From positions 1 through 31,299 of the forward strand of contig JBHLSH010000047.1 in assembly GCA_048881705.1 (NCBI GenBank): a stretch of DNA of 31,299 nt, read 5' to 3'. The notes under the pieces were generated by a model, which was given only the letters and a program-made list of their open reading frames with translations, did not search any database and was not told the DNA's origin. Shown one piece after another: positions 3 to 31,299 of the stretch (its first letter is position 1; every line of letters starts with the position of its first letter). The stretch is from Candidatus Heimdallarchaeota archaeon. Its GTDB lineage: Archaea; Asgardarchaeota; Heimdallarchaeia; Hodarchaeales; Hodarchaeaceae. The position numbers and the translations under genes are program-made.

Positions 3-1184
3 AAGCTTTCAGATGATCATTTAGCCAAGTTTCTCATTCATGGAGTCGAAGCTGAATACATTCAGAGTTTAAAGGATATCCAGTATGATGATTTGCCGCC
101 TGAACACCTAATAAAGATGAAAATACATGATGTAGTAGTTGACTTCATCCTTGAACTCCAGGAGCTCGGCTATTCAAATTTAGCACCGAACCAATTGGTC
201 AAGATGCGAATATATGGAGTAACCCCCAGTTTTATTCGAAAATTAGGTCAGAAAGGAGATAACTATGAGAACTTAGAAGTCGGTCAATTGGTTAAATTAC
301 GGATCCATGATGTTACTCCAGAATTTATTGATGAACTGAAAGAACAGGGGTACGATAACCTTTCAATTAATCAGTTGGTAAAACTCCAGATTCACAATGT
401 GTCGATTAATTTGATCGAGCGATTTCAAGCCTTAAAACTGGATCTGTCTATTAATCAACTAGTCAACTTTCTCATCCAGAATATAACTCCCGAGTTTGTT
501 GAAGGATTGATCGATCGAAATTTCACTGACCTAACTCCCAATCAGATCCAACAATTTGGAATTCATAATGTCTCTCTGGATTTCATCGATAAAATGAGAG
601 AAAACTTCCCTGGTATTTCCCCAGGGCAACTTGTAAAACTACGTATTCATGATATCAATCCGGAATACATTACGGGCCTGAAGTCTCTCGGATTTAATGA
701 TATCTCGGCAAACAAAGTAATCAAGTGTAGAATTCATGGAGTCACTTCCGAGTTCATCGCTGGTCTACAGGCTCTAGGATATGACGTTCCAATTAACCGC
801 ATCATAAATCTAGCCATTCATAATGTGAGCATCGATTTTATAACTAGCTTTAGGGACATCGGTTATGATTCCTTATCATTAGAGGAAATTCAAGACGCGA
901 AAATTCATGGAGTAACCCCTGATTTTGTTACTAGACTGCAAGAAATGAATTATCTGGACATTGAGTTCTCTAAAGTTAAAAAAATGAAAATTCATGGGGT
1001 TAATATTGACATGATACGACAGTTTCGTGAATTAGGATTTCAAGATGTTTCCATTGATTATCTAATAAGGCTGGCAATATATAATGTTACTCCCTCTTTC
1101 ATTCAACGACTAAGAGATAAAGGCTTTCAAGACCTTGACCTGGATCAAATAATAAAAATAAAGATACATGGAATAATTGATTGA
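3..1184 (+). CDS. Tandem-repeat protein with ~29-aa 'IHxVTPxFI' repeats; 5'-truncated by the window edge
   Basis: The frame is open from base 3 (KLSDDHLAKFLIHGVEAEYIQ...), so the TTG at 93 is internal. 13 complete 28-31 aa units, consensus IH[GDN]V[TS]x[ED]FIxxLxxxG[YF]xxLxxxQLxK[LM][RK], ending IHGIID-TGA. Confidence 0.85.
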   Translation, partial: KLSDDHLAKFLIHGVEAEYIQSLKDIQYDDLPPEHLIKMKIHDVVVDFILELQELGYSNLAPNQLVKMRIYGVTPSFIRKLGQKGDNYENLEVGQLVKLRIHDVTPEFIDELKEQGYDNLSINQLVKLQIHNVSINLIERFQALKLDLSINQLVNFLIQNITPEFVEGLIDRNFTDLTPNQIQQFGIHNVSLDFIDKMRENFPGISPGQLVKLRIHDINPEYITGLKSLGFNDISANKVIKCRIHGVTSEFIAGLQALGYDVPINRIINLAIHNVSIDFITSFRDIGYDSLSLEEIQDAKIHGVTPDFVTRLQEMNYLDIEFSKVKKMKIHGVNIDMIRQFRELGFQDVSIDYLIRLAIYNVTPSFIQRLRDKGFQDLDLDQIIKIKIHGIID

Positions 1185-1315
1185 TCAATTGAACATTGAA
1201 TCTTCTTATATGGGAAGAACGACGAAGTCTTCATAAACGGGAAGCCAATTATAACCATGATTTAGAAGGCGCGTCCCTCCACTACGAACTATTTTCAACA
1301 TATAGAGGTATCTCT

Positions 1316-1948
1316 ATGAGTTTAGATCCCCGTAGATTCTTTTCTATTCATACCCTTGGCCTGGCGGGGGTATTAGCTCCAGTCATTGGTTATAGCGGAA
1401 TTCTTTTATCCATTCTCCTAAATCTAGACTGGTTTAGTCTGACAGATAACGCATTGAGTGATCTGGGTCATTACGGTAATCTGGGTCTCAAGGCATTCGT
1501 TTATAATGGTGGGTTATTCTTTAGCGGGCTAATGGCCCTGATATTTTGCTTAACGATATTCTACCAAGAGCGTGCCGCTTTTGCAGAAGATACCTTGGGA
1601 AAAACATCTTTCTTACTTGGGGTGATGGTCTTTTCCATTTCTGGCCTAGCCCTGGTGGGGATAAGCATACTTTCCGAGGATTTTGGTTCTATTCATAGAT
1701 TCGTCTCCGAAGTGTTTTTCGTGTCCATTCCGTTTGCCATGTGGCTTTTTGGAATTGCATTTTATCGTAGGGCTGAATTAAACGCCACGGGGTTATTCGC
1801 ACTTGTTGCGGGTACCGTTGCAGGTTTAGCCTGGATTTCATACTTTGCATTCCCAGTATTCTCTGGCGTAGCTATCCCTGAGGCCCTTTCATCAATTGCC
1901 GTGAGTCTCTGGATTGTCTTTCGTGGAATCCAGTATTACCAGTCTTGA
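1316..1948 (+). CDS. DUF998-family multi-pass membrane protein
   Basis: GVLAPVIGYSGILLSI..WFSLTDNALSDLG..FVYNGGLFFSG and HRFVSEVFF motifs, ~6 hydrophobic segments. Start moved from the track's TTG 1196 to ATG 1316, which follows a GAGGT RBS. Confidence 0.75.
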   Translation: MSLDPRRFFSIHTLGLAGVLAPVIGYSGILLSILLNLDWFSLTDNALSDLGHYGNLGLKAFVYNGGLFFSGLMALIFCLTIFYQERAAFAEDTLGKTSFLLGVMVFSISGLALVGISILSEDFGSIHRFVSEVFFVSIPFAMWLFGIAFYRRAELNATGLFALVAGTVAGLAWISYFAFPVFSGVAIPEALSSIAVSLWIVFRGIQYYQS

Positions 1949-2262
1949 TCAGCAAGAGTCCGTTTTCCTAAACGGCTGTTCATCTCGTAAATACTATAGT
2001 TTCCAGTGAAAATGATTCTAGCAACATATTCTTGTTTGAAAATATCTTTATTCAACTCCAAATGGAAGAAAATCCGCAAAACGACATCTGATTAAGCTAT
2101 AGCTAAGAACCCCAGCTAAGTTTGAATGCTGAAGTCGGTTCCATGGCTAAATTTGACCCATCTGCCGGGAGACGCTTTTTCATTCTAATTTATATTACAT
2201 AAAACAATTGGTTTCTGCGAAACGTATCAGAAAACATTTGAGAGAACTGATTGGAGTTCTAA

Positions 2263-2280
2263 TTGAGCGTATTTGCTCAA
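2263..2280. promoter_or_regulatory. Perfect inverted repeat TTGAGC-N6-GCTCAA, candidate operator
   Basis: ttgagc gtattt gctcaa lies directly before the GTGAGG RBS of the ATG at 2298. Confidence 0.35.
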
Positions 2281-2297
2281 GTGAGGCAACTAGTCAG

Positions 2298-2582
2298 ATG
2301 CTTTTCATTGTACAACACACACATTCTGAATCTAACTGCCCAGCTCGTGATCCTGAACAAGGGAACATGTTACTCCAACATATAAATCAAAATGCCGCCC
2401 ATTTCGGTGTCACTATCAATGCGGAGGGCGTGGCGAACGGAAAACACCAATTCCACTTGATTGTGGAATCAGACTCGCAAAAGAACGTAGAACGGTTCAT
2501 GGCACCGTTCAAACAAGCTGGCCAAGTTGAAATTCTTCCTGCTTCCCCCTGTGAGGTTGTTGTGGATCGAGGCGCCTGCTAG
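2298..2582 (+). CDS. Small His/Cys-containing protein, DUF3303/GYD-like alpha-beta barrel type (94 aa)
   Basis: MLFIVQHTHSESNCPARDP...HQFHLIVESDS..VERFMAPFKQAGQVEILPASPC..DRGAC. ATG 2298 follows a GTGAGG RBS; the track's upstream extension looks non-coding. Family is from recall. Confidence 0.6.
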   Translation: MLFIVQHTHSESNCPARDPEQGNMLLQHINQNAAHFGVTINAEGVANGKHQFHLIVESDSQKNVERFMAPFKQAGQVEILPASPCEVVVDRGAC

Positions 2583-2991
2583 GTTCCACCACCTCTCTCT
2601 TTTTACCATTTTTATGATTTTGGTTTCATTGGATTACGATTGACGGACGTGATTTCCATAACCTGAATTGGTCGAAAATCGGTCGGCCAGAAGAAATCGC
2701 CTTACGTTGATCGTAGGGGCCTGCCATGGTATTAAATTTTGATTTTTCTTACCCAGATTCAAAAAACCGAATATGACCTTTCTCCTCATAACTTTATTGG
2801 TTCCCCATTCCCTTTGTCAAAGGACAACAATGGACTATAGATTGGCTGCTGATGTGTGAGCATCAAAGTTTTCTTTCGCAATATCTGTTCTTTTATCTAA
2901 CAATTTATAACATCGATTGATTTAGTATTAGTCAAATTCAAAGCATTTATAATATTGTAAAATTGAATACCGATCGAGGTCGTGCTGGGAT

Positions 2992-3429
2992 TTGATGGAC
3001 ATGAGAAGGAGGAAAACATGCAATTATTGTAAAAAAGAAGTACCAGAGGAATTTGGGACTCCGACAATTCTATGGTCATATTTCATCGCGGGAAATCATC
3101 CAGCGAAAGGATGGCCCAAAGGCGCCTATTGTAACGGAAAATGTCGCTTAAGGCACAATCTACTAATGAATCCGTTGAGACCCTTTCTGGCACCAATTGG
3201 GTTAATTATTGTAGCACTAATCATCTATTCCTGGATAAATATTTACACTTCAGAAGTTGGTTTTCTGGAGTCTCACTCAGAAGGCGATATTTTTTTTCTT
3301 TATCTTTGGTCACTTCTAGGGAGTGCTAGTTTTCTGTATGGAATGGCTTCCTTATTGACAAGATTATACTACTACCTCTCCCTGAGCAGATCAAAAGAGA
3401 AAGAGGCCTCTTCCCTTTTGCGCCCCTAA
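2992..3429 (+). CDS. Hypothetical membrane protein with an N-terminal Cys4 (TRASH/MYM-like) finger and two TM helices
   Basis: CNYC-x33-CNGKC followed by two hydrophobic stretches; GAGGT upstream at 2976-2980. Confidence 0.6.
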   Translation: MMDMRRRKTCNYCKKEVPEEFGTPTILWSYFIAGNHPAKGWPKGAYCNGKCRLRHNLLMNPLRPFLAPIGLIIVALIIYSWINIYTSEVGFLESHSEGDIFFLYLWSLLGSASFLYGMASLLTRLYYYLSLSRSKEKEASSLLRP

Positions 3430-3527
3430 AACAAGTTCCTGATTAAGTTCGCCCTATGGTAAAGCTGTGGTGGAATTAGGCGCCCCTGTCGAAGATTATT
3501 GAGAGTTCGTACATCTCAGACTGAGCT

Positions 3528-3560
3528 GAAACATCGGCAAGTTTCTTGCGGTTTTTTTTT
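3528..3560 (+). terminator. Short hairpin plus T9 tract downstream of 2992..3429
   Basis: gaaac-atcggcaa-gtttc followed by a T9 run at 3552-3560. Confidence 0.4.
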
Positions 3561-3692
3561 CTAAGGAGATGGTTTATCATCGATACCCTGAATGAATAAA
3601 TACTGGTATTAAACCTTGTTTTGGGGAGAATTTTACCTGCTCTTCTACCAAGATTTCTAGACGATTTCTTCTAGGAAAAGAGATCGCGGATA

Positions 3693-3728
3693 TTCAAAAA
3701 TGTAGTACGGATCGTTCTAAAATGAAGG
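3693..3728 (+). repeat. 36-bp direct repeat, copy A
   Basis: ttcaaaaatgtagtac-GGATC-gttctaaaatgaagg; its 16-bp and 15-bp arms are identical to those at 5367..5402. Confidence 0.9.
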
Positions 3729-3953
3729 ATAATATGCCTTGATTTCTCCGATTAGTCGAAATTTAATTCTGGTGAGCATAAAGTGGGAAGACAAATTGAT
3801 CTTCATGATTACGATATTGCGGCTACAACCCATCTCCATAACACCCTCTTGTAACGACAAATGCTGCTCCTTTTAACCGAATAAACCAAATAACAAAGAT
3901 TGAATGGCCTCTCGAATTAATTCCGAGCTAATTAGGGATTTTAGGAGTGGACA

Positions 3954-4943
3954 TTAAAGGAGAGCATTAATCATTTCTGCAAGAGAATCCATTTTTACAA
4001 GGAGATACTGGAGTGGAGCCACTTTTCTAGCGATTCCATTTAGTACCAGTTCTGACTGGATTCTCTGGAAGACAAACAGATAATCGTTGGTTTCTAAGAT
4101 TGTTTTTAACGTTTCATCTGATGCAAAGTCAGCAGTAATCCGTTCGTAGTTTGTTAACCAGAGGTTGGCGGGAATCATAATATTGTGGGCCATCGGACCT
4201 TCCTCAAATATAGGAAGACCGTCTTCGGTATAAACAGTGATTCCAGAGAGTTCCTTATTCATTTCAATGAATTGTTGGATGGTTTGAGAGATATCTCCCC
4301 CTCCCGCCTTTTTGAGTATTATGGTTTGAATTAAATCTCCAATTGCTCGGAAAATTGAATTTTCAAAGATCGAGGTATTATAGTGTCTGATCTGGATTTT
4401 TGAATTCTTAGGTGGTACAAAGTATTCCTTCAGAGTTTCTGTTACCTCATCTTTCATATGGGGCAGTAAAAGGTCAGTTTTATGAAGTAAGCAAAATGCG
4501 ACAGCTCTTGGGGAATACTCATTAAGTTTATTGATTGCATGGGTAAAATAGAATTTTGACGTGGAAACTTGATCAAAATCACTCACATCAACAACCCATA
4601 CTAGGATTTCAACATCGGTGAAAATGAATTCCGCCTGTTCCCCCACGAATACGGAAAGGAAACTCTCTTGACCTCCGCAGTCAAAGATTTGAAATGCGGT
4701 ATTGATAATGTTCTTCGTTGAACGGGTATAATTTATTGTAGCATGGTAATCCTTCACGTCATCGGGAGTTTTACCTTCAAAGACGACGGCCCGAATACTA
4801 CTCTTGCCAGATGCCCCTAATCCCATCAATAAAACCTTTTGTGTCCGAGAAAAGGCGTCCATTTTTTGAAACTCTTTATTCACTGATCTTAAGAGGTTGG
4901 TCGGAGATTCGATGTTAGAATTAGAATAGATTGGAGTTTGCAT
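3954..4943 (-). CDS. Rag (Gtr1/RagA-like) GTPase with C-terminal roadblock-like domain
   Basis: KVLLMGLGASGKSS (G1), ATINY (G2), IFDCGGQ (G3, RagA-type), LLHKTD (Rag-type G4 HKxD), TSIF (G5), then a ~115-aa alpha/beta domain (LSGITVYTEDGLPIF...). Confidence 0.9.
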   Translation of the reverse strand: MQTPIYSNSNIESPTNLLRSVNKEFQKMDAFSRTQKVLLMGLGASGKSSIRAVVFEGKTPDDVKDYHATINYTRSTKNIINTAFQIFDCGGQESFLSVFVGEQAEFIFTDVEILVWVVDVSDFDQVSTSKFYFTHAINKLNEYSPRAVAFCLLHKTDLLLPHMKDEVTETLKEYFVPPKNSKIQIRHYNTSIFENSIFRAIGDLIQTIILKKAGGGDISQTIQQFIEMNKELSGITVYTEDGLPIFEEGPMAHNIMIPANLWLTNYERITADFASDETLKTILETNDYLFVFQRIQSELVLNGIARKVAPLQYLLVKMDSLAEMINALL

Positions 4944-4954
4944 TTAGAACTTTA

Positions 4955-4982
4955 TAGGTTCTCTTAGGATATAAGAGACCTA
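4955..4982. promoter_or_regulatory. Near-perfect inverted repeat 12 nt upstream of the Rag start codon
   Basis: taggttctctta-ggata-taagagaccta: 11 bp with one bulged T. Confidence 0.35.
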
Positions 4983-5366
4983 GAGTGTAAGCAATTCAAA
5001 AAATCCTGCAAAGACTTTAAGTGAGTGTCTAATAAAAATTCTCCCCTTTTCATTTGTCCAAGATCCAGCTACTAACGCAAACAGCTTCCCCAGTAGTTTC
5101 CTCTTTTGATTTTTGGAAGTTAAAAGCATAAGATAGAAGAACAACGAACTATTCTTTCTTTTTCTCTCAAGAAGAAGCGTTTAAATTTCCCGTTTTTTCA
5201 CGTTTGCTGCCGTCTAGAATTAACGAATCGTTCTAGGAAATTCTTCGTGTCCGCATCCCCGGAGAATTTTTTCCAATACGAATATTCATGATCCTCGCAA
5301 GGTTTCACGGGTCATCTTTTATAACCCAGAACCAGTCTGAAAGGAAGAGCTAGTTTTCTTTGAATG

Positions 5367-5402
5367 TTCAAAAATGTAGTACACTCTGTTCTAAAATGAA
5401 GG
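5367..5402 (+). repeat. 36-bp direct repeat, copy B
   Basis: ttcaaaaatgtagtac-ACTCT-gttctaaaatgaagg; lies ~55 bp upstream of the likely ATG at 5457. Confidence 0.9.
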
Positions 5403-5456
5403 GTGATAATCTTATATTCTCACAGACAGATTCGATTTATTCTAGGTGGCCGGAAA

Positions 5457-6098
5457 ATGAAAGATGAAAATAGAATCAGGGCATTCTTAATTAGTGTCAC
5501 GGGTTATTCAATTCTATTATTGCAACAGTTACCTGGAATTTGGGTTTGGATACCTCTGATGGCCGCTCCAGTATTCTTACTTCTTGGAGTCCTCATTTCT
5601 AACCTTCCAGCACGAATAACTGACATCTTTCAAAGCCTCATTTCGTTGAATGAAGTAATCCTTGGAAAACTGGCAATAATTATGGGTTTAATTATAGTGA
5701 TCTACTCCATTATCTATCTGGGTATCAAAAAGCGACACGGATTAGTCAAAACAGGGCTTTATCGTTTTATTAGACATCCACAATACCTGGGATTTATATT
5801 ATTAACTATCGGGTTTACTGGATGGAGTTATTACTACATTAAGTTTACATTCGGTATTAGCTGGATTTCTGCAGAACAGACAATCGGTTTATGGTATATC
5901 CAAATGTTTTTGTATTTTCTTCTCGCATTTATTGAAGAGAGGCATTTGACCGCAGCTTTTGGTGCAGAATTTACCGAGTATAAGAATGAAACGTCTTCTT
6001 TTCTCCCTTTTGCGAAATCAGACCTCCAGAACTACTTATCTTCTTTGATTGTCTTTAGTCTTATCTTAATGTTCGTGATCCAATTTCCATTCACATAG
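5457..6098 (+). CDS. Isoprenylcysteine carboxyl methyltransferase / PEMT-family membrane protein
   Basis: LVKTGLYRFIRHPQYLG and EERHL..AFGAEFTEYKNETSSFLP motifs, multiple TM segments. ATG 5457 follows an AGGTGG RBS. Confidence 0.8.
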   Translation: MKDENRIRAFLISVTGYSILLLQQLPGIWVWIPLMAAPVFLLLGVLISNLPARITDIFQSLISLNEVILGKLAIIMGLIIVIYSIIYLGIKKRHGLVKTGLYRFIRHPQYLGFILLTIGFTGWSYYYIKFTFGISWISAEQTIGLWYIQMFLYFLLAFIEERHLTAAFGAEFTEYKNETSSFLPFAKSDLQNYLSSLIVFSLILMFVIQFPFT

Positions 6099-6529
6099 AG
6101 GCGGTTCTATATTTGCTCTCGGTATTAGAAGCGATATTCATTCCAGGATCGCAAACAGCCCTTTGCGGACAACCACAGATATTCAATTCTCTCTATGGAA
6201 TCTTTGTTGCGGTGATTGGTGCCCTTGGAATCGCCGGGAGTAGCATTTGGGGATTAATCATCAAAGCATGTGGGATAAAACTCTCGATAATCAGCGTGAA
6301 AGACACGACCACTCCCTCCGACACCAATTTTAATTTTTCTCCTTCCTACGCTTTCTAGAACGAGATTGTAGATTTCACACCCTTTTGTCGATTCTTTAAG
6401 GGTAAATTTGAAGTAGGATTCGAGTTCAGCCTGTTGTAACCGTTCTTACAAAGAAACGTTTCGATTAATTAATTCCTACCAGATTTCTACCTGCTCCTTG
6501 ATGTTCCTGTTGTTTCTTTATCCAAATAC

Positions 6530-6716
6530 TCAATCCCCTTTTCCTAAGCGAGTTTCTGCGCCTTCCACTTGGATTCGGTTATTACAAAAATCAGCTCCAT
6601 GCGTCCATATATACCCTTCAGAAAAAAATATTTTCAACCATATTTCGAACCAGTTTATCTGATAGATCGATGGGGCTCCCTAAAATACCAATCTTCAGGA
6701 TATATTCGTTCTCAAC
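6530..6716 (-). pseudogene. Frameshifted N-terminal relic of a Rab/Ras-like GTPase
   Basis: Minus strand reads (V)ENEYILKIGILGSPIDLSDKLVRNMVENIF; skipping one base in the 7-nt homopolymer at 6622-6628 gives SEGYIWTHGADFCNNRIQVEGAETRL, resembling the beta1/P-loop and YxxTIGADF switch I of the Rab at 13803..14414. AGGAGGT RBS lies 8 nt before a non-start GTT. Confidence 0.5.
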
Positions 6717-7482: not shown

Positions 7483-7938
7483 AAAGGGAGTCATAATATG
7501 ATACAACAAGTCTTGGCAATTTTCCAAAGTCTAACAAAGCAGGAACTCCATATTATGGGATGATGCGGGTTTTCGGTGAGTGGCTGTGGATGGCGTTTAT
7601 GATGATTGGAGGAATGATACTAATAACTGAAGTCCCTCCTTGGATCATAAGGTTTGGATGATCTTGGCCGATCAAATACCTTTAACCCCCATTAGCTTTA
7701 GAGGGGAGACCTGCGAGTGAATAAACATCAATTTATCGAACATCATATCCGTAAAACCCAGGGTCTCGCCCGTCTATTCTTTCCCAAAGGAAGATGAGTT
7801 TCACCCCTCCTTCCGAGAGAATACGTGGACTAACCAGATATCAAATAACTGATCTACATATATTTTTCCCCTAGACTGAGTAAATTTTAAAAAAGGGATA
7901 TCATTTTTTGCTGCTGGTTGCTTTGAACATGAGTGTGT

Positions 7939-9294
7939 ATGAGTATGTCTTCCCTACCATCTACTGCTCTCGATGAAACAATTGAATTACTCCAAAAATT
8001 AATTCAGAATAAATGTGTTAATCCCCCCGGTGATGAACTTCGGTCTATTAAAACCATTGAATCGTACCTTACCGACCGAAATATTTCGTGTCAAGTGTTT
8101 GAAACCGCTCCCAATCGGGGAAATTTGGTTGCACGGATTAATGGTTCTAGTGATGGATCTAGTTTAATGTTTGGACCAGCTCATGTTGATGTCGTCCCAG
8201 TGGACCGTGATAAATGGTCTGTCGATCCCTTCGAGGGAGTTATCAAAGATGAACATGTGTGGGGACGTGGAACACTAGACATGCTGTTCATTGTGGCAGC
8301 CCAGGTTCAAGCATTTAGTCAACTCCAGCAAGAAGGTTTCAAACCAAAAGGGGATCTAATTCTATGTGTTGTAGCTGATGAAGAGGCGGGCGGTACCTAT
8401 GGTATGGAATGGTTGATAAAAAACCAATTGGAAATAATCCAATCCGATTATGCTCTTGGGGAAGCAGGGGGGTTTCCGTTGGCCGATGGCAAGTTACTCG
8501 TATTTGGAACAGGTGAGAAGGGAGCGGCATGGAAACGATTAACATTTAGAGGGACACCTGCACATGGTTCGAGCCCATATAAAAGTGATAACGCGGTGGT
8601 TAAGGCTGGATTGGCGGCAACCAGATTAGCTCGCTACAAATCTCCCGTAGATACTCAGTACATCAAAGTTATGGCAAAAGGAATTGGAATGAATCCGATC
8701 ATTCGTCTCTTGATGAATAGATGGATGCTAGCTCCTGTTTTGAATTTGATTTACAGAAAAAATCCAACTATAGCTAAATTGCTTTATTCTTTAAGTCGGA
8801 TGACTATTTCACCTAATATTGTACAAGGAGGGACAAAAACAAACATCATAGCTGGACAAGCGCATCTAGGTGTAGACATCCGAGTGTTACCAGACCAGAA
8901 TGACGGTTATGTGACTGACCATGTCAAAAAAGCTATCGGAAAAAAACTAGCTCAAGAGACGACTATTGAGACTCCGTCCGATTTACCTGGCTTCTTCCAA
9001 TCGCAAGGTAGTACCTCAGAGGTTTCCCCTGAAATTAAGGACGCAATCATGAAGTCGGTTTCACCATATTATCCTGATGCTCAATTTGTTCCAATGATGA
9101 GTTCTGGAGCGTCAGATCTCCGATTTCTGAGGCCACATGGGACACGAGCCTACGGGTTTTCGCTGTTCGATCCTTCCGTTAATATTAACGAAATTTCAAA
9201 GTTGGCTCACGGCCCTAATGAACGGATCGGCATAAAAACGATCGATTTAACTCTCCATGCTTATTATAACGTGGCAAAAGAGTTACTAGGATGA
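7939..9294 (+). CDS. M20/M25/M40-family metallo-hydrolase
   Basis: AHVDVV, WGRGTLDM, ADEEAGG, GEAGG and AHGPNERI metal-ligand/catalytic motifs; dimerisation domain GTPAHGS...GGTKTNII. Confidence 0.92.
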   Translation: MSMSSLPSTALDETIELLQKLIQNKCVNPPGDELRSIKTIESYLTDRNISCQVFETAPNRGNLVARINGSSDGSSLMFGPAHVDVVPVDRDKWSVDPFEGVIKDEHVWGRGTLDMLFIVAAQVQAFSQLQQEGFKPKGDLILCVVADEEAGGTYGMEWLIKNQLEIIQSDYALGEAGGFPLADGKLLVFGTGEKGAAWKRLTFRGTPAHGSSPYKSDNAVVKAGLAATRLARYKSPVDTQYIKVMAKGIGMNPIIRLLMNRWMLAPVLNLIYRKNPTIAKLLYSLSRMTISPNIVQGGTKTNIIAGQAHLGVDIRVLPDQNDGYVTDHVKKAIGKKLAQETTIETPSDLPGFFQSQGSTSEVSPEIKDAIMKSVSPYYPDAQFVPMMSSGASDLRFLRPHGTRAYGFSLFDPSVNINEISKLAHGPNERIGIKTIDLTLHAYYNVAKELLG

Positions 9295-11903: not shown

Positions 11904-13433
11904 ATGAGGAATCGGCGCAGGGTGAGTGTATTTGGGTTTTTTGTCATTCTCCTAGCCGTTTTAGGTTTGGTGTTCCCAACGGTAATCGGTGTTACCGATT
12001 CAACGCAGATTTTCGCGGTTGCGTATGTTGAAAGCGATCAAACCACCCATCTCCTTCTTCGCTATCGATTAACAACCGTGTCAGATTCAAGTTTGGGCAT
12101 CTATCACGCGTATAAATCAAGCGGAGGGATTTGGTCACAACCACAAGAGATGGATTTGAACGGAAGATGGTTCCTATCTCTCGTATCCAATAATGATAGC
12201 TTACGGCTTTATACTACGGAGGAAATTTTCTATCGATTTCCTGCTAAGGCACCTTCAATGATGGGGGATTATAGATATGGCGAGATCCTGTACGAACACA
12301 TCTATGATCCTTTAACGGCAGAATGGATGGTAGAGAGTATCTTTGAAACTGATCAAATCATGGGGGAATTAGAAAATGAGAGTTCCAGTTCATCATTTAG
12401 CGGTGTTGATCTATTTGACAATGATGTTTTATTTGTGCGCTGGGAAGAGCGTTTTACTGGAACCGCTTATATAACCAAACTAGATGGAAGTTCCAATTCA
12501 TCTCGAACTTACATATTGCAGAATAATAGCGTAAAAGCAATTATCCCCCAAAAGAATCGTTTGGACCAATATTTCATCTATACGAGAGATTATAGTGTCA
12601 CAGATAATTATACACGGTATATCCTCTTCTCTAACGATACAATGACGGGGCCCGAGGAGGTTCCTATCAATTCCCAAGATTTCTTATTCTATTCCATCGT
12701 GAACAATTTCTTCTTTGGAATGGAATATATCGATTCCCCAACTTCTTGGAAAACTTACGATCTATCGATGAATAACATCTCAATGTCTGTTTATCCATAT
12801 GACCATGAAAGTTATACTTTTGGGACATATAGAATCTCCCCCTTCGATTTGACGGGTTGGGATGATGAATCCCTATTATTTGCAACAATACAAGTCCCTC
12901 GAATCGAATTTTGGTTATTCGGTACTAATGACGCTGAGATGATCTTACTTGGGAATGCTACAATGGATATCCCTGGTGCTGAACAGATGAACCTAGCATC
13001 AATCAATGTAATTAATGATGCTGGGATCTTAACGTTCTATTGGACATTCGAATCTATACCTGGATTTTCAGACAGCTATGACGTTGAATACAACAGTTAT
13101 AACGTTGAATACAACAGTCACAATTCTACTGCGAGTGAAATCAGGGCAATGCGAAATTATCTAGATTTTTCTCTCCAAAGAAATCAATTATTCGTAAGAA
13201 CATGGGTGAATCAATTCATTCTACTTGCTGGGCTTGCCTGTACCGGATGGCTTCTAGTATGGTCGGTATCGGGAAAGAGGACTGATATCGAAGTCCGCGA
13301 AGATCGGAAAAATGATGGAAAAAAATCCTTAACATATTTTGGAATGCCATTTTTCTTGCTTTATAGTTATTTTCGTCCCCGTAAGAACCGTAGAGTAGAG
13401 GAGCCGGTGAACAAAAACAATATTGATATATAA
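11904..13433 (+). CDS. Membrane-anchored extracellular protein of unknown function
   Basis: Basic N-terminus plus hydrophobic signal (MRNRRRVSVFGFFVILLAVLGLVFP), a S/T/N/Y/D-rich beta-type body, a TM helix near aa 435-458 and a basic tail. Confidence 0.8.
   Translation: MRNRRRVSVFGFFVILLAVLGLVFPTVIGVTDSTQIFAVAYVESDQTTHLLLRYRLTTVSDSSLGIYHAYKSSGGIWSQPQEMDLNGRWFLSLVSNNDSLRLYTTEEIFYRFPAKAPSMMGDYRYGEILYEHIYDPLTAEWMVESIFETDQIMGELENESSSSSFSGVDLFDNDVLFVRWEERFTGTAYITKLDGSSNSSRTYILQNNSVKAIIPQKNRLDQYFIYTRDYSVTDNYTRYILFSNDTMTGPEEVPINSQDFLFYSIVNNFFFGMEYIDSPTSWKTYDLSMNNISMSVYPYDHESYTFGTYRISPFDLTGWDDESLLFATIQVPRIEFWLFGTNDAEMILLGNATMDIPGAEQMNLASINVINDAGILTFYWTFESIPGFSDSYDVEYNSYNVEYNSHNSTASEIRAMRNYLDFSLQRNQLFVRTWVNQFILLAGLACTGWLLVWSVSGKRTDIEVREDRKNDGKKSLTYFGMPFFLLYSYFRPRKNRRVEEPVNKNNIDI
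13074..13118 (+). repeat. 21-bp in-frame tandem duplication (SYDVEYN-SYNVEYN-S)
   Basis: agctatgacgttgaatacaac / agttataacgttgaatacaac / agt; 19 of 21 bases identical. Confidence 0.9.
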
Positions 13434-13802: not shown

Positions 13803-14414
13803 TTACCACAGTTCAGCTAGCTGTTTCCGAATTACAGAGGGTTTGGATTTCCGCCTAAGATTTTCCCGTTTCACGGCAAAATCCATTATGTTTTCCCCGA
13901 GAAGTGAATAGGCGTCATGAACCTTAGTCCCTGTTTTTGCGGATGTTTCGACGTAGTGGCAAGCGAATCCCAGAGATGAAGTTAGTTTAGAGAGTTTCTT
14001 ACTGATCAACCTGCCTTGTTCGGAGGTTATGGGCTCATCACATGACTGACGTAAATCTATCTTGTTTGCCACTACAACAACCGGCACCTTCCCTCTGCCA
14101 TTATTCGCCCAAAGCTCTTTAATCCATTTTACGCAGTTGTAATACGATTCGGGCCTAGAGACATCATATACCAACAAGGCACCCATGGCTCCCTTGTAAT
14201 AGACGTCTCTTACGCCGTCAAAACGTTCTTGGCCCGCTAAATCCCATATCTGATATCTTATTGGGTTACCATGGATAACCTCATCTTTCATGGAAAAATC
14301 TGCACCGATTGTCATTACGTATTGAGTTTCAAAACCACGGCCAAGGTATCGTTCACGAATTGCGGTCTTACCCACACCACCATCACCGATTAATACAATT
14401 TTAAAAACGATCAT
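13803..14414 (-). CDS. Rab-like small GTPase (Ras superfamily)
   Basis: FKIVLIGDGGVGKT (G1), YVMTIGADF (G2), IWDLAGQERF (G3), YYKGAMGALLVYDV, NKID (G4), ETSAK (G5); basic C-terminal tail with no terminal Cys. Confidence 0.95.
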   Translation of the reverse strand: MIVFKIVLIGDGGVGKTAIRERYLGRGFETQYVMTIGADFSMKDEVIHGNPIRYQIWDLAGQERFDGVRDVYYKGAMGALLVYDVSRPESYYNCVKWIKELWANNGRGKVPVVVVANKIDLRQSCDEPITSEQGRLISKKLSKLTSSLGFACHYVETSAKTGTKVHDAYSLLGENIMDFAVKRENLRRKSKPSVIRKQLAELW

Positions 14415-14769: not shown

Positions 14770-16104
14770 ATGATGGACAAGGGAAAAGAGGTAGCAAATT
14801 TGGGTAAAAAGTTGCTCGTGCCAATAATTATGATGTTTATGTTCACTCCGATCAGTTTTTTATCTGCAGATCCGACTTATGTGGAAACAGCGAGTGAAAT
14901 TCCATCTATAAAAATCGATTGGAATCGTACATATGGAGGAGCAGGGGACCAATCTGGATATGCGATGATTCAAACGGTAGATGGCGGATTTGCCATTGCA
15001 GGGCAATCTTTATCCTCTGGAATGAATGGTTCGCAGGTAATGGTGGTAAAAACGAATGCCAGTGGACATGAACAGTGGAATTACCGTTTTGGGGGAAATC
15101 AAGTTATAGGAGAGAGTGCAAATGGATTGACTCAAACGTCAGATGGTGGATTTGTCCTTACTGGATGGACGGTATCCTTGGCTGTTCAGAACGAGACTAC
15201 CGATTCGTATACTGGCGATGTCTTGTTAGTGAAAATTGATGGCAGCGGTAAGGAGGTATGGAAACGTACATTCGGGGGAACTGACTGGGATTGGGCCAAT
15301 GAAATAATCGAAACAGTCGACGGAGGATTTCTCTTAGGTGGTTGTACAAATTCGTATGGTGCTGGAGAAGCCGATTTCTGGATAATAAAGACCGATAGCA
15401 ACGGACTAGAGGAATGGAACTACACATTAGGGGGACCTACAAGAGATTTTTGTGATTCACTAATCGAGACAAGAGATAGGGGTTTTGCCCTCTCTGGAAG
15501 CAGCGGTGACGACTTATGGTTGGTGAAAGTCGATGCGAGTGTTAACCAACAATGGGATCAGCGATTGGGGGGAGGAAACCGGGATATTGGAACTTCCGTA
15601 ATCCAGACAGAAGAGGGAGGATTTGTGGTTGCTGGGGTGATTTCAGGTAATTTCGATTATCGCGATGCCTGGTTGGTAAAAATTGACTCTTCCGGGAACG
15701 TGGAATGGTCACAGACGTACGGGGATTCACCAGTAGCGGAAGCCCATTCGGTAATCCAAACAGCAGATGGCGGATTCGCTTTTGCGGGATACAGCCAAGA
15801 AGACGTAGATGTTTATGCTGACACGGATCTATATGTTGTGAAAACTGATGCCAGCGGAAGTGAGGAATGGAATTATACTGTTGGAGGAACAGGCGAAGCT
15901 TTTGGACGATCGATTGTCCAGACGGCAAATGGAACATTTGTCATAGGAGGAAGTAGGAGTTCTAACAGTAATACTGATACAGATATGTGGCTCATAAAGG
16001 TCACACTAATTCCGCGCAGTTCTGTCTCCACCAACCTTCCAGGCCACTTCTTTATCCTCAGCGCGGGAATTCTGGCCTTAGTTAGGAGAAAGAGATTAAA
16101 ATAG
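14770..16104 (+). CDS. Surface protein with 7 repeats (probable 7-bladed beta-propeller) and a C-terminal sorting-like signal
   Basis: Signal-like N-terminus; seven W-x-x-[TR]-[YFLV]-G-[GD]...[QE]T-x-[DEN]-x-G/T-F-x-x-x-G units; ends LPGHFFILSAGILALVRRKRLK. Confidence 0.85.
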   Translation: MMDKGKEVANLGKKLLVPIIMMFMFTPISFLSADPTYVETASEIPSIKIDWNRTYGGAGDQSGYAMIQTVDGGFAIAGQSLSSGMNGSQVMVVKTNASGHEQWNYRFGGNQVIGESANGLTQTSDGGFVLTGWTVSLAVQNETTDSYTGDVLLVKIDGSGKEVWKRTFGGTDWDWANEIIETVDGGFLLGGCTNSYGAGEADFWIIKTDSNGLEEWNYTLGGPTRDFCDSLIETRDRGFALSGSSGDDLWLVKVDASVNQQWDQRLGGGNRDIGTSVIQTEEGGFVVAGVISGNFDYRDAWLVKIDSSGNVEWSQTYGDSPVAEAHSVIQTADGGFAFAGYSQEDVDVYADTDLYVVKTDASGSEEWNYTVGGTGEAFGRSIVQTANGTFVIGGSRSSNSNTDTDMWLIKVTLIPRSSVSTNLPGHFFILSAGILALVRRKRLK

Positions 16105-19651: not shown

Positions 19652-20971
19652 GTGGCATTGTTTAATTATTCGCGATTAAGGGTATCAGAGTATGCTGGAA
19701 TAGCATCAGTCCAGTTTCTTCTCTTTTTTAGACGTTTAATAATTTATACGTTCCTAGCGATTTATTTAAGAGTAGTTATCGGACTTTCGACAACAGAAAC
19801 CTCCCTCTTATCAGCCATTGGGATGATTGTGAGTTCAATCGCTCAACCCTTTCTCTGGGGAAGATTGTTAGATCGTTGGAAGATATCAGGGTCTATGTTT
19901 GTGGCGATCGGTGAGATTATCGCAGGTTTGGGTCATATTTTCATGTTTTTATGGCACAAGGCGACGTTAGAGACGGGAAATATCAGGTTAGCCGGATTTG
20001 TAATCATCATTAGCTTGGGTTTCATCGAATTACCCTGGTCCATGTCGAATGTTGGGTGGAGCACATTAATCTCGGAAAAGACGGAGGAAGAAGAAAGGAC
20101 GAAACTAATGGGACAGCTCTCTGTTGTGGGAGGAATAGGGGGAATAATAGGGGCATATTTAGGCGGTCAGTTATACATTGGGGGATTGGGGTTCTCATCG
20201 GGTGTACTGTTCTTTGTTGCCGCCATCGTCATGTTCGGATCTGGAATTATCGTATTCTTTTCTGTTAAAAGAGGAGAATCTTTGAAACACGATAGAAATT
20301 ATTCTGGCACAATGATTACAACAATTACGTCTTTAAGTGAACTACCCTCTAATGTAACAAAAACGTTTGTTATATTACTAGGATCCCTGGCTTTTTTCTT
20401 TTTTGGCCTTAATTCAGTGGTTTTTACTGCAATTTTTTATATAGTAGATCCAAATGCGTTTAACGCTAGTGACCAGCAGGTTGCTCTGTATCGTAACGTT
20501 TGGTCTATCTTCCAAATCATTGGTGGAATTTTCCTCGGCATTGTTAGTTATCGTATAAAGGATACAAAAATCCTTCTGTTCGGCATCGTGATTGGATCGC
20601 TTGCCCTGTTCTGGCTCCCATTTGCGCCAAACTACAATATCGCATTGGTCACACCTGGATTATACGGACTCTCATTTGTGCTAGGCAGAAGCGCTTCTTA
20701 TTCTGTTGTTGCAAAGATAATCCCTCCAGATTTTCGAGGCCGCCTATTTGGCTATTATAATTCAGTCTTCTTTCTGAGCTGGGGACTTGGTGGTACTGTC
20801 CTTGGCGGACCCGTTGCAGATTATTTCATTTCAAGGGGGTATTCCGCTGCGGAAGCTTACCGAGTCAGCTTTTTTGCGGCAGGGGGATTGGTGATTTTTG
20901 GTTTGATAATGATGTTATATGCTATCAAGCTGATAGGTAGCCTGGAGATAGCAACAGAAAAACGCAGCTAA
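19652..20971 (+). CDS. MFS transporter
   Basis: ~12 TM segments; WGRLLDRW motif A, EEERTKLMG and DFRGRLFG loops. Confidence 0.9.
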   Translation: MALFNYSRLRVSEYAGIASVQFLLFFRRLIIYTFLAIYLRVVIGLSTTETSLLSAIGMIVSSIAQPFLWGRLLDRWKISGSMFVAIGEIIAGLGHIFMFLWHKATLETGNIRLAGFVIIISLGFIELPWSMSNVGWSTLISEKTEEEERTKLMGQLSVVGGIGGIIGAYLGGQLYIGGLGFSSGVLFFVAAIVMFGSGIIVFFSVKRGESLKHDRNYSGTMITTITSLSELPSNVTKTFVILLGSLAFFFFGLNSVVFTAIFYIVDPNAFNASDQQVALYRNVWSIFQIIGGIFLGIVSYRIKDTKILLFGIVIGSLALFWLPFAPNYNIALVTPGLYGLSFVLGRSASYSVVAKIIPPDFRGRLFGYYNSVFFLSWGLGGTVLGGPVADYFISRGYSAAEAYRVSFFAAGGLVIFGLIMMLYAIKLIGSLEIATEKRS

Positions 20972-22605
20972 GATATGGCAACCAGGGGGCCAAATAATTC
21001 CTCGGCATCATTGACTGCATCTTCAAACACTTTGACATTCCCGTTCCAATCAGAAAGGACCTTCTGAAATCTCACTTCAAATCGATGAAGGAAACGTCTC
21101 AGCACTTTTTGGAGTTCTATATCGTTCTTATTGGAAAACACTGCCCCAGAGAGACCTCCTGATGTATCGGATAAAATAAAGTGAGTGCCATGTCGAACCA
21201 AGTTTAGATTGGCGTTTTCTTCTCCTGTGGCTTCAAGCATAAAACTTCCTACGGCAGAAAGAGCTCCAGAAATAAGGGGCAGGTCAACCTTCAAACTTTC
21301 TCCTTTTCCAAAGTTATAAGAAAAAATCGGTAGACCAGCATCATTAATTACCAATAAGAGAAAGAAATCCAGGGGTGGAGAGGAATCAGTTGTCCAATAG
21401 AGTGGGAAACTCGCTAAAACCGCCAAAGCAATAAGTAAGAATACATTGAAGGCTAATTTACTAGCAATGTCCGCGAAGGGATTGAACAATCCCAATATAA
21501 GTCCCAAAACGACTCCTAGAGAGATGGAAAGGAATCCAAGGGAGTAATATCGGCTTAATGAATCTCTTGATGCGAGATCGGCCCAAACAGAGGCATCAAG
21601 GGAAGGATGGATAAACGCAAATGCTATACCAATAATAAGTGCTGCAGTTAGGAAAGATAAGGGATTTTCGGGAAGTAGACCCACGATAATTGCTGCAAAA
21701 ACAATCAAATAGGTTGCAAGAACTATTGCAGATTTACGACCAAATTTATCAACAAATATGCTTGCCGGAAGAATCAACAACCCTGCTCCGAAGATCACTC
21801 CAGCCCAAAAGGTCTTATACGCCCCTAAATCGATTCCAAAGAAAGCTGTCACATTATAATAGGTCCCAGCTTCAGCTAAAGAACCAATCATGAGGCCTAT
21901 CATTAAATATACCAATGTGTGTGTCCAGAAATATACGATAACAGAGGGTCTTTTAATTATTTGCCAGTTAGTTGTGGGCCAAGGGTCATTAGTCCAAAAT
22001 GACCAAAGTTTTGTGCAATAAAAGAAAATACTTGTCAAAAATAAGCCCGTTAGGGAATAGAGAGTAAATCCGAGGAGGTAATTGCTATTAATAATACCGA
22101 TTCCGAGAATAACCAAGAGACTGAATAACTCGAAAATAAAGATTGCTACGCCATAATTGGTTCCTCGCTTCTTCCAATTGATATTTAAGCCTCCAAAGAG
22201 AGTATGGCTAGCGATAACAAGGACGCCCATTAAAAATCCCAGGCTCATTGCGCTGATGATAATAAACAATCCATTCTTAACTAACAGAGATACTACATAA
22301 TTAGCGAGAAGGGTCGAACTTCCGCCAAGACCGAGTAAGACAGTTTTGCCGATGTATTTGGGGTATTTATCTAGGAATACACCCGTTATAACCAAAGCTC
22401 CGGGAACAGGCCATGCAATAATGATTAACATTAACAAAACATCCACACCAGGAAGTATAGATGAGGAATTCATATAATCGACAAAATCATAAATATACAC
22501 AAGAACCAAAGAGGCAATAAACAGCCAGGAAAAGCTTAAGGGCAGGAGTAGAGCGGCATAAAATGAGAATGGCTTCGAAAGTTTGAACAAGGCCAAATAA
22601 AACAT
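20968..22605 (-). CDS. MFS-type 12-TM protein fused to a C-terminal longin-like domain
   Basis: aa 1-~405 hydrophobic with FVDKFGRK motif A; aa ~412-545 soluble: LLVINDAGLPIFSYNF..LISGALSAVGSFMLE..LNLVRHGTHFIL..AVF..VLRRFLHRFEVRF..LSDWNGNVKVFE. No stop between the domains. Confidence 0.82.
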   Translation of the reverse strand: MFYLALFKLSKPFSFYAALLLPLSFSWLFIASLVLVYIYDFVDYMNSSSILPGVDVLLMLIIIAWPVPGALVITGVFLDKYPKYIGKTVLLGLGGSSTLLANYVVSLLVKNGLFIIISAMSLGFLMGVLVIASHTLFGGLNINWKKRGTNYGVAIFIFELFSLLVILGIGIINSNYLLGFTLYSLTGLFLTSIFFYCTKLWSFWTNDPWPTTNWQIIKRPSVIVYFWTHTLVYLMIGLMIGSLAEAGTYYNVTAFFGIDLGAYKTFWAGVIFGAGLLILPASIFVDKFGRKSAIVLATYLIVFAAIIVGLLPENPLSFLTAALIIGIAFAFIHPSLDASVWADLASRDSLSRYYSLGFLSISLGVVLGLILGLFNPFADIASKLAFNVFLLIALAVLASFPLYWTTDSSPPLDFFLLLVINDAGLPIFSYNFGKGESLKVDLPLISGALSAVGSFMLEATGEENANLNLVRHGTHFILSDTSGGLSGAVFSNKNDIELQKVLRRFLHRFEVRFQKVLSDWNGNVKVFEDAVNDAEELFGPLVAIS

Positions 22606-22837: not shown

Positions 22838-24058
22838 ATGATTGAAGATTTAGATTCCGAATTAGAAAAAACAAATAGTGAGGCTATTATCATCATAGGA
22901 GACAGTACTTCGGGGAACCCCTCTCTTGCATACGTTTGTGGCGTAACAGTTCCTCGTGGTGGAGTTTATATCAAAAAAGTTGGTGAGGACCCTGTTCTTG
23001 TTGTTGGTGATTTGGATACGGCTAATGCTCAGCGCGGATTAGTTAAAAGGGTTTATCCCACATCTAAATACAATCTCTCAAAACTTGCCAAGGAGAACGG
23101 GCTTAAAGAGGCATATGTTGTCATCTATGATCAAATTCTTAAAGAATTTGGCGGAGCTAAAGGGGTTGTGCTTGCTGGCAAGATCGAGGCGGGTCAGGCC
23201 ATTGATATTTCAAGAAGAATGGTAAAAAGGGGGTATAAGATCGTGGCTGATCCTGATTTGGTGGATAAGGTTCGAAGAACAAAGAGTTCGAGAGAACTTG
23301 ATATCATAAATGAAGTAGCACGGAAAACCGAAGATGTTGTACGGGCCACGCTTTTAATGCTCCGAGAATGTTCAATAAAGGGCAACACACTTCAAAACCC
23401 CTTTGAATCAGGAAAAGCGTTAACAGTTGGCAATGTTAAACAGTTTATCAACCTCAGATTGGCAGAAAGAAACCTTATCGCTGTTTTTGATACAATATTC
23501 GCTCCTGGACCAGATGGAGCAGACCCACACAATCATGGCACCTCAGGACGAAAGGTAACCACAGGAACACCTATTGTATTTGATATTTTTCCCAGAGATA
23601 TCGAATCGGGATACTGCTTTGATACTACAAGAACTTTTACTATCGGAAAAGCGTCTGATGAGATAAAAAAAATGCATGAGGATGTTTTGACGGCTCAAGA
23701 GGCCGCTTTAGAACAGATCATGGCCAACTCCAACGGAAAGAAAATTTCAACATCGGTCTGCAATATTCTTGCAAAGCGTGGTCACAAAACTCCGTTATTT
23801 TATATGGAAAATCCTGGAATGCCTATGAAAGAAGGATATATTCATGGTTTGGGCCACGGGGTAGGTTTAACGATTGGTGAGCCCCCATATCTCTCACTTC
23901 TCAGAGAAGAAGAGGTTTTAAAGGTCGGAGATGTCGTTACAGTCGAACCTGGGGTTTATTATCCCAATAAATGGGGGATAAGAATTGAGGACACTGTTGC
24001 TGTGCAGAACAAAGGCCTTAGGAATTTTTCAACCTTGGAAAAGAATCTTGAGCTATAA
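22838..24058 (+). CDS. Xaa-Pro aminopeptidase / M24B peptidase
   Basis: Metal ligands in FDIFP, FDTTRT, HGLGHGVG, TVEPG and IRIEDTV. Confidence 0.93.
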   Translation: MIEDLDSELEKTNSEAIIIIGDSTSGNPSLAYVCGVTVPRGGVYIKKVGEDPVLVVGDLDTANAQRGLVKRVYPTSKYNLSKLAKENGLKEAYVVIYDQILKEFGGAKGVVLAGKIEAGQAIDISRRMVKRGYKIVADPDLVDKVRRTKSSRELDIINEVARKTEDVVRATLLMLRECSIKGNTLQNPFESGKALTVGNVKQFINLRLAERNLIAVFDTIFAPGPDGADPHNHGTSGRKVTTGTPIVFDIFPRDIESGYCFDTTRTFTIGKASDEIKKMHEDVLTAQEAALEQIMANSNGKKISTSVCNILAKRGHKTPLFYMENPGMPMKEGYIHGLGHGVGLTIGEPPYLSLLREEEVLKVGDVVTVEPGVYYPNKWGIRIEDTVAVQNKGLRNFSTLEKNLEL

Positions 24059-30798: not shown

Positions 30799-31299
30799 TT
30801 ATTTCCAGATTTTTAGAAAAACACGTTCTAGATTCCCTCCCATGATTTTGCCAATATCGTGTTTACCAAAACCTTCTTTCTCGAGGGATACAGGAAGCTC
30901 CTTCATCTTGCTTACATCTTCCAATCCACGAGGAGTCATCGAAATTCCATCGAAATCGGAACCCACTCCAACATGTTTAACTCCAACAAGATCTGTAACA
31001 TAAGATATATGGGCAATTACATCGTTTATCGATGCGCTGCTAGGATCGACCCCGTGGACTAAGAATTTATTATAAAAATTGATTCCAATGACGCCATCTG
31101 CGCTGGCAATTGATTCTATTTGATCATCCAGAAGGTTACGAGGAATAGGACATATTTTATGTGCATTTGAGTGGGAGGCTATGAAAGGTTTTGTGGAAGT
31201 TTTGACTACATCTTCGAACCCTGGCTTATTCAAATGTGAAACATCGAGGATTATCCCTAAATCTTCCATGACTGGAATCAATTCCAATCCCTGCTGAGA
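30799..31299 (-). CDS. Membrane dipeptidase (peptidase M19), 5'-truncated by the window edge
   Basis: IILDVSHL, IASHSNA, RNLLDDQI, HVGVGSDFDG. The frame stays open to base 31299 (SQQGLELIP...). Confidence 0.93.
   Translation of the reverse strand, partial: SQQGLELIPVMEDLGIILDVSHLNKPGFEDVVKTSTKPFIASHSNAHKICPIPRNLLDDQIESIASADGVIGINFYNKFLVHGVDPSSASINDVIAHISYVTDLVGVKHVGVGSDFDGISMTPRGLEDVSKMKELPVSLEKEGFGKHDIGKIMGGNLERVFLKIWK

Follow-up and report, generated by a model that had tools for sequence, protein, structure and literature searches.

The 31,299-nucleotide window analyzed here is contig JBHLSH010000047.1 of a Candidatus Heimdallarchaeota archaeon (assembly GCA_048881705.1). On its reverse strand, at positions 20968-22605, lies a gene whose product, P0001, combines a predicted major facilitator superfamily (MFS) body of twelve transmembrane (TM) helices with a cytoplasmic C-terminal domain of longin fold. 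An earlier note, made from the DNA letters alone, had proposed an uninterrupted frame for such a fusion, and the gene is indeed a single frame of 545 codons plus the stop, beginning with ATG and containing no internal stop. The motifs quoted in that note all occur in the translation, namely FLDKYPK (residues 77-83), ISGALSAVGSFMLEATGE (residues 445-462) and FLHRFEVRFQKVLSDWNG (residues 505-522). According to the helices of an AlphaFold2 (AF2) model, the MFS-fold body spans residues 13-403 (21397-22569, reverse strand) and comprises TM1-6, a central cytoplasmic loop (residues 198-219) and TM7-12. The ten-residue linker WTTDSSPPLD (residues 404-413; 21367-21396, reverse strand), which is nearly invariant, connects the body to the longin-fold domain (residues 414-545; 20971-21366, reverse strand). 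The bounds of this last domain, taken from the AF2 topology and structure alignment, agree within two codons with the originally proposed 20968-21372.

The full-length AF2 model of P0001, built from a 44-sequence alignment (A1), reached a mean predicted local distance difference test (pLDDT) score of 88.2 and a predicted template modeling score (pTM) of 0.89. It contains twelve long helices arranged as six plus six around the cytoplasmic loop, followed by the linker and the α/β domain. When we compared the model with the PDB using Foldseek, all matches were MFS transporters (VMAT1/2, YajR, OxlT, SfMCT, LmrP, MCT1 and GLUT3), with E-values from 2e-8 to about 3e-6 and TM-scores by target of 0.7-0.82 (0.75-0.82 for VMAT1/2). 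The modeled body accordingly has the MFS fold, with twelve TM helices in two six-helix bundles, as read previously from the sequence.

Pfam MFS_1 (PF07690) scored 32.0 bits on P0001, against a cut-off of 33.4, with an E-value of 8e-8 over residues 236-411 only, which were aligned to positions 3-178 of the profile; homologues of P0001 are recorded with PF07690. This alignment of the C-terminal half to the N-terminal half of MFS_1 is explained by a canonical motif A in the TM8-TM9 loop (V-D286-K-F-G289-R290, then K291; 21739-21756, reverse strand), with D286, G289 and R290 invariant and K291 more than 90% conserved in A1. The TM2-TM3 loop carries a family-specific variant of the motif (G75-VFL-D79-KY-P82-K; 22357-22383, reverse strand). 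The earlier note regarded this variant as degenerate and suspected impaired transport. Since G75, D79 and P82 are invariant across the family (A1), the variant is, judged from column conservation, a conserved derived motif and not the product of decay. Motif A can thus be recognized in both halves, in canonical form in loop 8-9 and as a conserved variant in loop 2-3. Such motifs give no reason to suppose a loss of the conformational cycle, and the case for impaired transport is weak.

Asgard archaea encode longin and roadblock domains as part of their set of eukaryotic signature proteins, and in eukaryotes the longin fold serves for the docking of small GTPases. To characterize the tail of P0001, we folded it alone with AF2 from a separate alignment (A2), which resulted in a pLDDT of 79.8. 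DSSP assigned β-strands at residues 10-16 and 22-27 of the isolated tail, a helix at 38-56, strands at 65-68, 71-78 and 81-87 and a helix at 92-108 before the terminal helices, which reproduces the β-β-α-β-β-β-α-α order previously predicted. In both the isolated and the full-length models, the tail forms a five-stranded antiparallel sheet and has no N-terminal helix but retains the C-terminal helices, as longins do and roadblocks do not.

Structure alignment with VIA-align placed the tail closest to longins. The best matches, both at Z 14.3, were TRAPP Trs23 (2j3t_D; 128 aa, r.m.s.d. 2.8) and the longin domain of Sec22b (1ifq; 122 aa, r.m.s.d. 2.5), while VAMP7, Ykt6 and Fuzzy scored overall at Z 12-13 (12.9 for Fuzzy). 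For 8yqg, the solved longin part of a Roadblock-Longin protein from a Lokiarchaeon, Z was 11.4 with 128 residues aligned. These longin matches span 122-131 of the 132 residues of the tail. Alignments with roadblock and MglB proteins were shorter, covering 100-107 residues at Z 10.6-11.4, because roadblocks lack the C-terminal helices. Foldseek likewise listed TRAPP Trs23/Bet5, AP sigma, Mon1-Ccz1, Fuzzy and zeta-COP as the best matches, followed by Ragulator and MglB roadblocks. The structure search proposed at the outset therefore bore out a longin fold for the C-terminal domain.

Sequence comparison was silent in this respect. In residues 400-545, Pfam identified no family even at E ≤ 1, including Longin, Sybindin, Sedlin, Fuz_longin and Robl_LC7, and phmmer and profile searches of the tail against the PDB returned nothing credible, the best profile match (E 0.16) being unrelated. 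On the predicted structure, the tail is a longin at the level of the fold, with no longin sequence family assignable. Elsewhere in the window, scanning every frame with profiles and without filtering revealed no other longin-like domain.

The earlier note had made its proposal depend on the presence of the fusion in other genomes. A word-index search found homologues of P0001 in 73 clusters, nearly all of 540-580 aa and with a query cover of 96-99%. As these nearly full-length homologues come from many assemblies and have an identical architecture, an assembly artefact or a fusion created by gene calling is ruled out.

Conservation is unevenly distributed along the protein. From the mean column identities in A1, residues 1-403, which include the TM body, the N-terminus and the loops, average 0.57, with about 0.5 for the helices of the N-terminal half and 0.59-0.78 for those of the C-terminal half, which adjoins the tail. 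The longin domain reaches 0.75, above the value for the body, and the linker 0.83, with D407, S408, P411 and L412 invariant in the 44 sequences. The strongest constraint thus falls on the tail and on the half of the carrier bearing it, a pattern that fits a tail with specific contacts.

We searched 301 genomes sampled across the phylum, counting tails at E ≤ 1e-25. The fusion tail was detected in 19 of the 20 genomes of the same family, in one of two from the sister family and in none of 279 from 28 other families. In this sample, the MFS-longin family is confined to one order, of Hodarchaeales type, a lineage belonging to the Asgard group that is often positioned closest to the eukaryotes. 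The genome studied here contains three copies, the window gene and a tandem pair on contig C35 (G000:C35:43-1722 and 4906-6594, forward strand; 559 and 562 aa; locus L018). SelR, methyltransferase and zinc-ribbon genes lie between the two paralogues, and C35 begins at the first of them, so that the upstream block is absent from the assembly. A quick maximum-likelihood tree (IQ-TREE; SH-aLRT 99-100 on the key splits) resolved three deep clades, at about 40% identity. Two of them correspond to the members of the tandem pair, which 14 of the 20 family genomes in the sample contain, and the third is a large "main" clade, of which the window gene is the single copy in this genome.

The tail itself is not restricted to MFS proteins. 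When 1.84 billion representative proteins were searched with the tail profile, 1457 passed E ≤ 1e-3, of which 122 also passed E ≤ 1e-10; the proteins range from about 110 to more than 2000 aa and have many architectures. Among the best 150, 112 are more distant proteins; in 74% of these, one or more TM segments are predicted ahead of the tail, and in 69% the tail forms the extreme C-terminus. Pfam assigned MFS_1 (7), KaiC (3), DUF835 (3) and others among 72 distant tail-bearing proteins, most of which have no family. A shape search of the ESM Atlas with the tail fold retrieved Asgard hypothetical proteins, response-regulator fusions and V4R fusions. This spread agrees with the published shuffling of longin domains in Asgard archaea onto GTPases, TRAPPC3/V4R and two-component modules (Liu et al., 10.1101/2020.10.19.343400; PMC10933270). 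Nine more frames of this genome (268-888 aa) contain distant relatives of the tail by the tail profile, with E-values from 2e-15 to 7e-4, located on C32 (32839-33180, forward strand, and 34052-34384, reverse strand) and on C97, C4, C25, C19, C110, C77 and C61; the two on C32 are less than 1.2 kb apart.

The loci of the main clade have a recurrent neighbor, c1, a protein of about 583-611 aa encoded directly upstream on the same strand in several genomes. The gap between c1 and the fusion is 9-100 nt at five loci (L002/L024, L004, L027, L033 and L037) and about 700 nt at L031, whereas at L025 and L028 the upstream c1 is cut by the contig end. A 609-aa unannotated gene occupying the c1 position before P0032 is probably c1 as well. 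By coordinate comparison, c1 adjoins the fusion in 7 of the 14 own-family genomes having a main-clade copy. As loci from different subclades of this clade share the adjacency, it is probably an ancestral feature there. This genome has a single copy of c1, P0222 (G000:C45:1774-3534, reverse strand; L005/L019). Its neighbors are those found at L004 and L033, except that the fusion and a SIR2 gene are absent and one small gene has the opposite orientation, which suggests that the fusion gene moved away from the c1 locus in this genome.

In the c1 protein, a basic low-complexity linker (...GFFxRIKxxLFGKK...) separates two conserved domains, one N-terminal and one C-terminal. The protein matches no Pfam family and no PDB sequence, and its ESM Atlas model (pTM 0.21) is too poor for use. 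Complex prediction for c1 (A3, 599 aa) with the tail (A2) gave an ipSAE of 0.00 in both runs, a result that speaks neither for nor against an interaction.

Taken together, we consider P0001 to be an MFS-fold carrier, or a sensor derived from one, with a membrane-proximal longin tail that would serve as a putative docking or dimerizing module under the cytoplasmic face. We give this reading a probability slightly above one half, about 0.55. Longin domains form platforms as homo- or heterodimers, e.g., in TRAPP Bet5/Trs23 and Mon1-Ccz1. By analogy, the tail is most probably a protein-docking and dimerizing module held rigidly beneath the carrier. The carrier could then be regulated by a cytoplasmic partner of longin or roadblock type, or could report its own conformational state to such a partner. 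The first candidates for this partner would be c1 and other longin tails, and a small GTPase might act downstream, although this last step is not supported for the window copy. The platform role of longins in Asgard proteins has been reviewed (PMC10933270).

Several observations weigh against this reading. The partner of the tail is a candidate only, and no substrate can be inferred. As no Pfam longin or roadblock family matches the tail at E ≤ 1, neither its subtype nor the class of its partner can be read from the sequence. Moreover, c1 is unlinked from the fusion in this genome and in the subclade of the window gene (L001, L022 and L003/L020). Its distribution, taken from the loci and genome searches, is also wider than that of the fusion, since it occurs in three other families of the class lacking the fusion (f4, f6 and f22), where no such gene follows it. 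Therefore, c1 can do without the fusion and is a candidate partner that is not obligate. Profile comparison detected no similarity between c1 and the tail (hhalign probability 0.3%).

Two alternatives deserve consideration, each of which we judge possible but distinctly less probable. The tail might be a purely intramolecular regulatory or oligomerization domain of an ordinary transporter, sending no outward signal, as the YAM domain of Escherichia coli YajR. YajR (3WDO), in which an MFS body likewise carries an extra soluble domain at its C-terminus, ranks among the best Foldseek matches of the whole chain (516 aligned columns, E 5.7e-8). A tail fixed against the carrier would agree with the pTM of 0.89 and the very short, invariant linker, and the motif A aspartate retained in both loops, together with the canonical motif in the C-terminal half, makes a normal transport cycle plausible. 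However, the same tail is found on many unrelated, mostly membrane proteins, as the 1457 profile matches indicate, for which a shared external partner is the better fit. The tail is also more conserved than the carrier, and its operon-like arrangement with c1, seen in many genomes, points to a second component.

The other alternative, put forward in the earlier note, is a transceptor hard-wired to small-GTPase signaling, in which the tail would dock or regulate a Rag- or Rab-like GTPase in analogy to SLC38A9-Ragulator-Rag. We found this doubtful. The best structural matches do include longins of Rab guanine nucleotide exchange factors (GEFs; TRAPP Trs23/Bet5, Mon1-Ccz1 and Fuzzy) and Ragulator roadblocks, but scores equal to those of the GEF longins are reached by the longins of the SNAREs Sec22b, VAMP7 and Ykt6, proteins without an action on GTPases. 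The window has two GTPase genes; the Rag-like one (3954-4943) is 16 kb and the Ras-family one (13803-14414) 6.5 kb from the MFS-longin gene, with unrelated genes of mixed orientation in between. The genome is rich in small GTPases, with 49 of the Ras family and about 9 dedicated Rag-like proteins, i.e., about 58 in 3.96 Mb or one per 68 kb. By chance alone, a GTPase gene would lie within 7 kb to either side with a probability of about 0.19, and two would fall in a 31-kb window with a probability of about 0.08. No GTPase adjoins the fusion in any main-clade context examined. The link is thus not supported for the window copy. Two large open reading frames flank the Ras-family gene of the window (11904-13433, forward strand, 509 aa; 14770-16104, forward strand, 444 aa), neither with a Pfam match at E ≤ 0.001.

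The situation is different for the tandem paralogues. A divergent Ras-family GTPase gene lies 2-4 kb upstream of the pair in seven of eight genomes checked, namely at L032, L034 and L036 and in G259 (C1:3148551-3149051), G136 (C1:25249-25740), G130 (C11:153314-153814) and G211 (C20:38731-39231). The upstream block, divergent from the pair, covers positions 56-4708 at L036 and is found at L032 and L034 as well. At these three loci, a conserved protein of about 255 aa directly follows the GTPase (after a 13-nt gap at L036), and its L036 copy shows a weak match to Fuz_longin_1 (E 0.0018), below the cut-off. The block also holds a fusion of amino-acid kinase and metallo-β-lactamase of about 565 aa, as well as an M42 aminopeptidase at L032 and L036. 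As this synteny was seen within one taxonomic family, it may be merely inherited. The GTPase beside the tandem pair is a family-level lead, and no evidence for the window copy.

A bolder scheme would unite the MFS-longin carriers, c1 and the Ras-GTPase/longin-like operon of the tandem paralogues into one membrane-bound nutrient-sensing platform confined to this Hodarchaeales-type order, in which the conformation of the carrier would be passed to a longin heterodimer and from there to a small GTPase. We rate this scheme as a speculation with rather long odds, even below the two alternatives above. If true, archaea would possess a precursor or analogue of the logic that links a transporter to Ragulator and Rag.

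Least probable is a non-transporting MFS body serving as a polytopic anchor or ligand sensor that places the longin on the membrane for a remodeling or trafficking-like machinery, since the poorly conserved N-terminal half with its non-canonical motif A, the MFS_1 score just below threshold and the conserved polar residues H229, H333, D343, R352 and Y353, which lie towards the cytoplasmic side of the C-terminal half and not in a mid-membrane cavity, would suit such a role, but the full 12-TM fold and both motif A aspartates, kept over deep divergence, exceed the needs of an anchor.

With a carrier bearing a docking tail as the preferred reading, the solute carriers of the MFS-longin family would each present a longin domain at their cytoplasmic face at all times. 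The family offers a defined pair of domains for asking whether longins already serve archaea as docking platforms on membranes. Should the tail only regulate the carrier, the family would represent a modest new regulatory-domain architecture.

As for the remaining neighbors in the window, a canonical MFS_1 transporter gene (19652-20971, forward strand; 439 aa, 125 bits) converges on the MFS-longin gene, the stop codons overlapping by 4 nt. On the other side, a gene for an M24 peptidase (22838-24058, forward strand) is divergent from it. This arrangement of MFS and M24 genes is common only to a relative with 92% identity (L003/L020) and is therefore uninformative. M20 (7933-9294, forward strand) and M19 dipeptidase (30799-31299, reverse strand) genes bring the metallopeptidases of the window to three. 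Together with the M42 aminopeptidase beside the tandem paralogues, they might point towards peptides or amino acids as a theme, which is not common to main-clade contexts elsewhere.

P0001 represents a new domain architecture made from two known folds. Descriptions of a fusion between an MFS or other transporter and a longin are missing from the papers found by full-text search, supplementary tables aside, and a census of Asgard transporters makes no mention of an MFS-longin fusion (PMC7997004), in agreement with the view of the earlier note that no characterized example was known. With Asgard longin and roadblock proteins, such as 8YQG and the MK-D1 roadblock protein 9JUE, the tail has the superfamily and the phylum in common; we know of no Asgard longin or roadblock protein yet tied to a membrane. 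The resemblance to eukaryotic longins, including TRAPP Trs23/TRAPPC4 and Bet5/TRAPPC1 (2J3T, 3CUE and 7E8T), Sec22b, VAMP7 and Ykt6 (1IFQ, 4AFI and 3BW6), and Fuzzy and Mon1-Ccz1 (9RS8 and 5LDD), extends to the fold and the order of strands and helices over 122-131 residues at Z 11-14.3. The sequence identity to them is 7-16%, and none of their Pfam families is matched. They also differ in context, as eukaryotic longins are soluble subunits or N-terminal domains of tail-anchored SNAREs, whereas the tail of P0001 is C-terminal on a polytopic transporter.

Among transporters, YajR shares with P0001 the succession of a 12-TM MFS body and a small cytoplasmic α/β domain. Its YAM domain is a ferredoxin-like domain of about 65 residues and not a longin, and the relationship is limited to the MFS body. 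The SLC38A9-Ragulator-Rag system of lysosomal amino-acid sensing is alike in concept only, in that a protein of transporter fold is coupled to platforms of roadblock or longin type. SLC38A9 is a protein of the APC/LeuT fold that contacts Ragulator-Rag via a disordered N-terminal tail without a fused longin, whereas in P0001 an MFS-fold body and a longin-fold domain are joined in one chain by a ten-residue linker.

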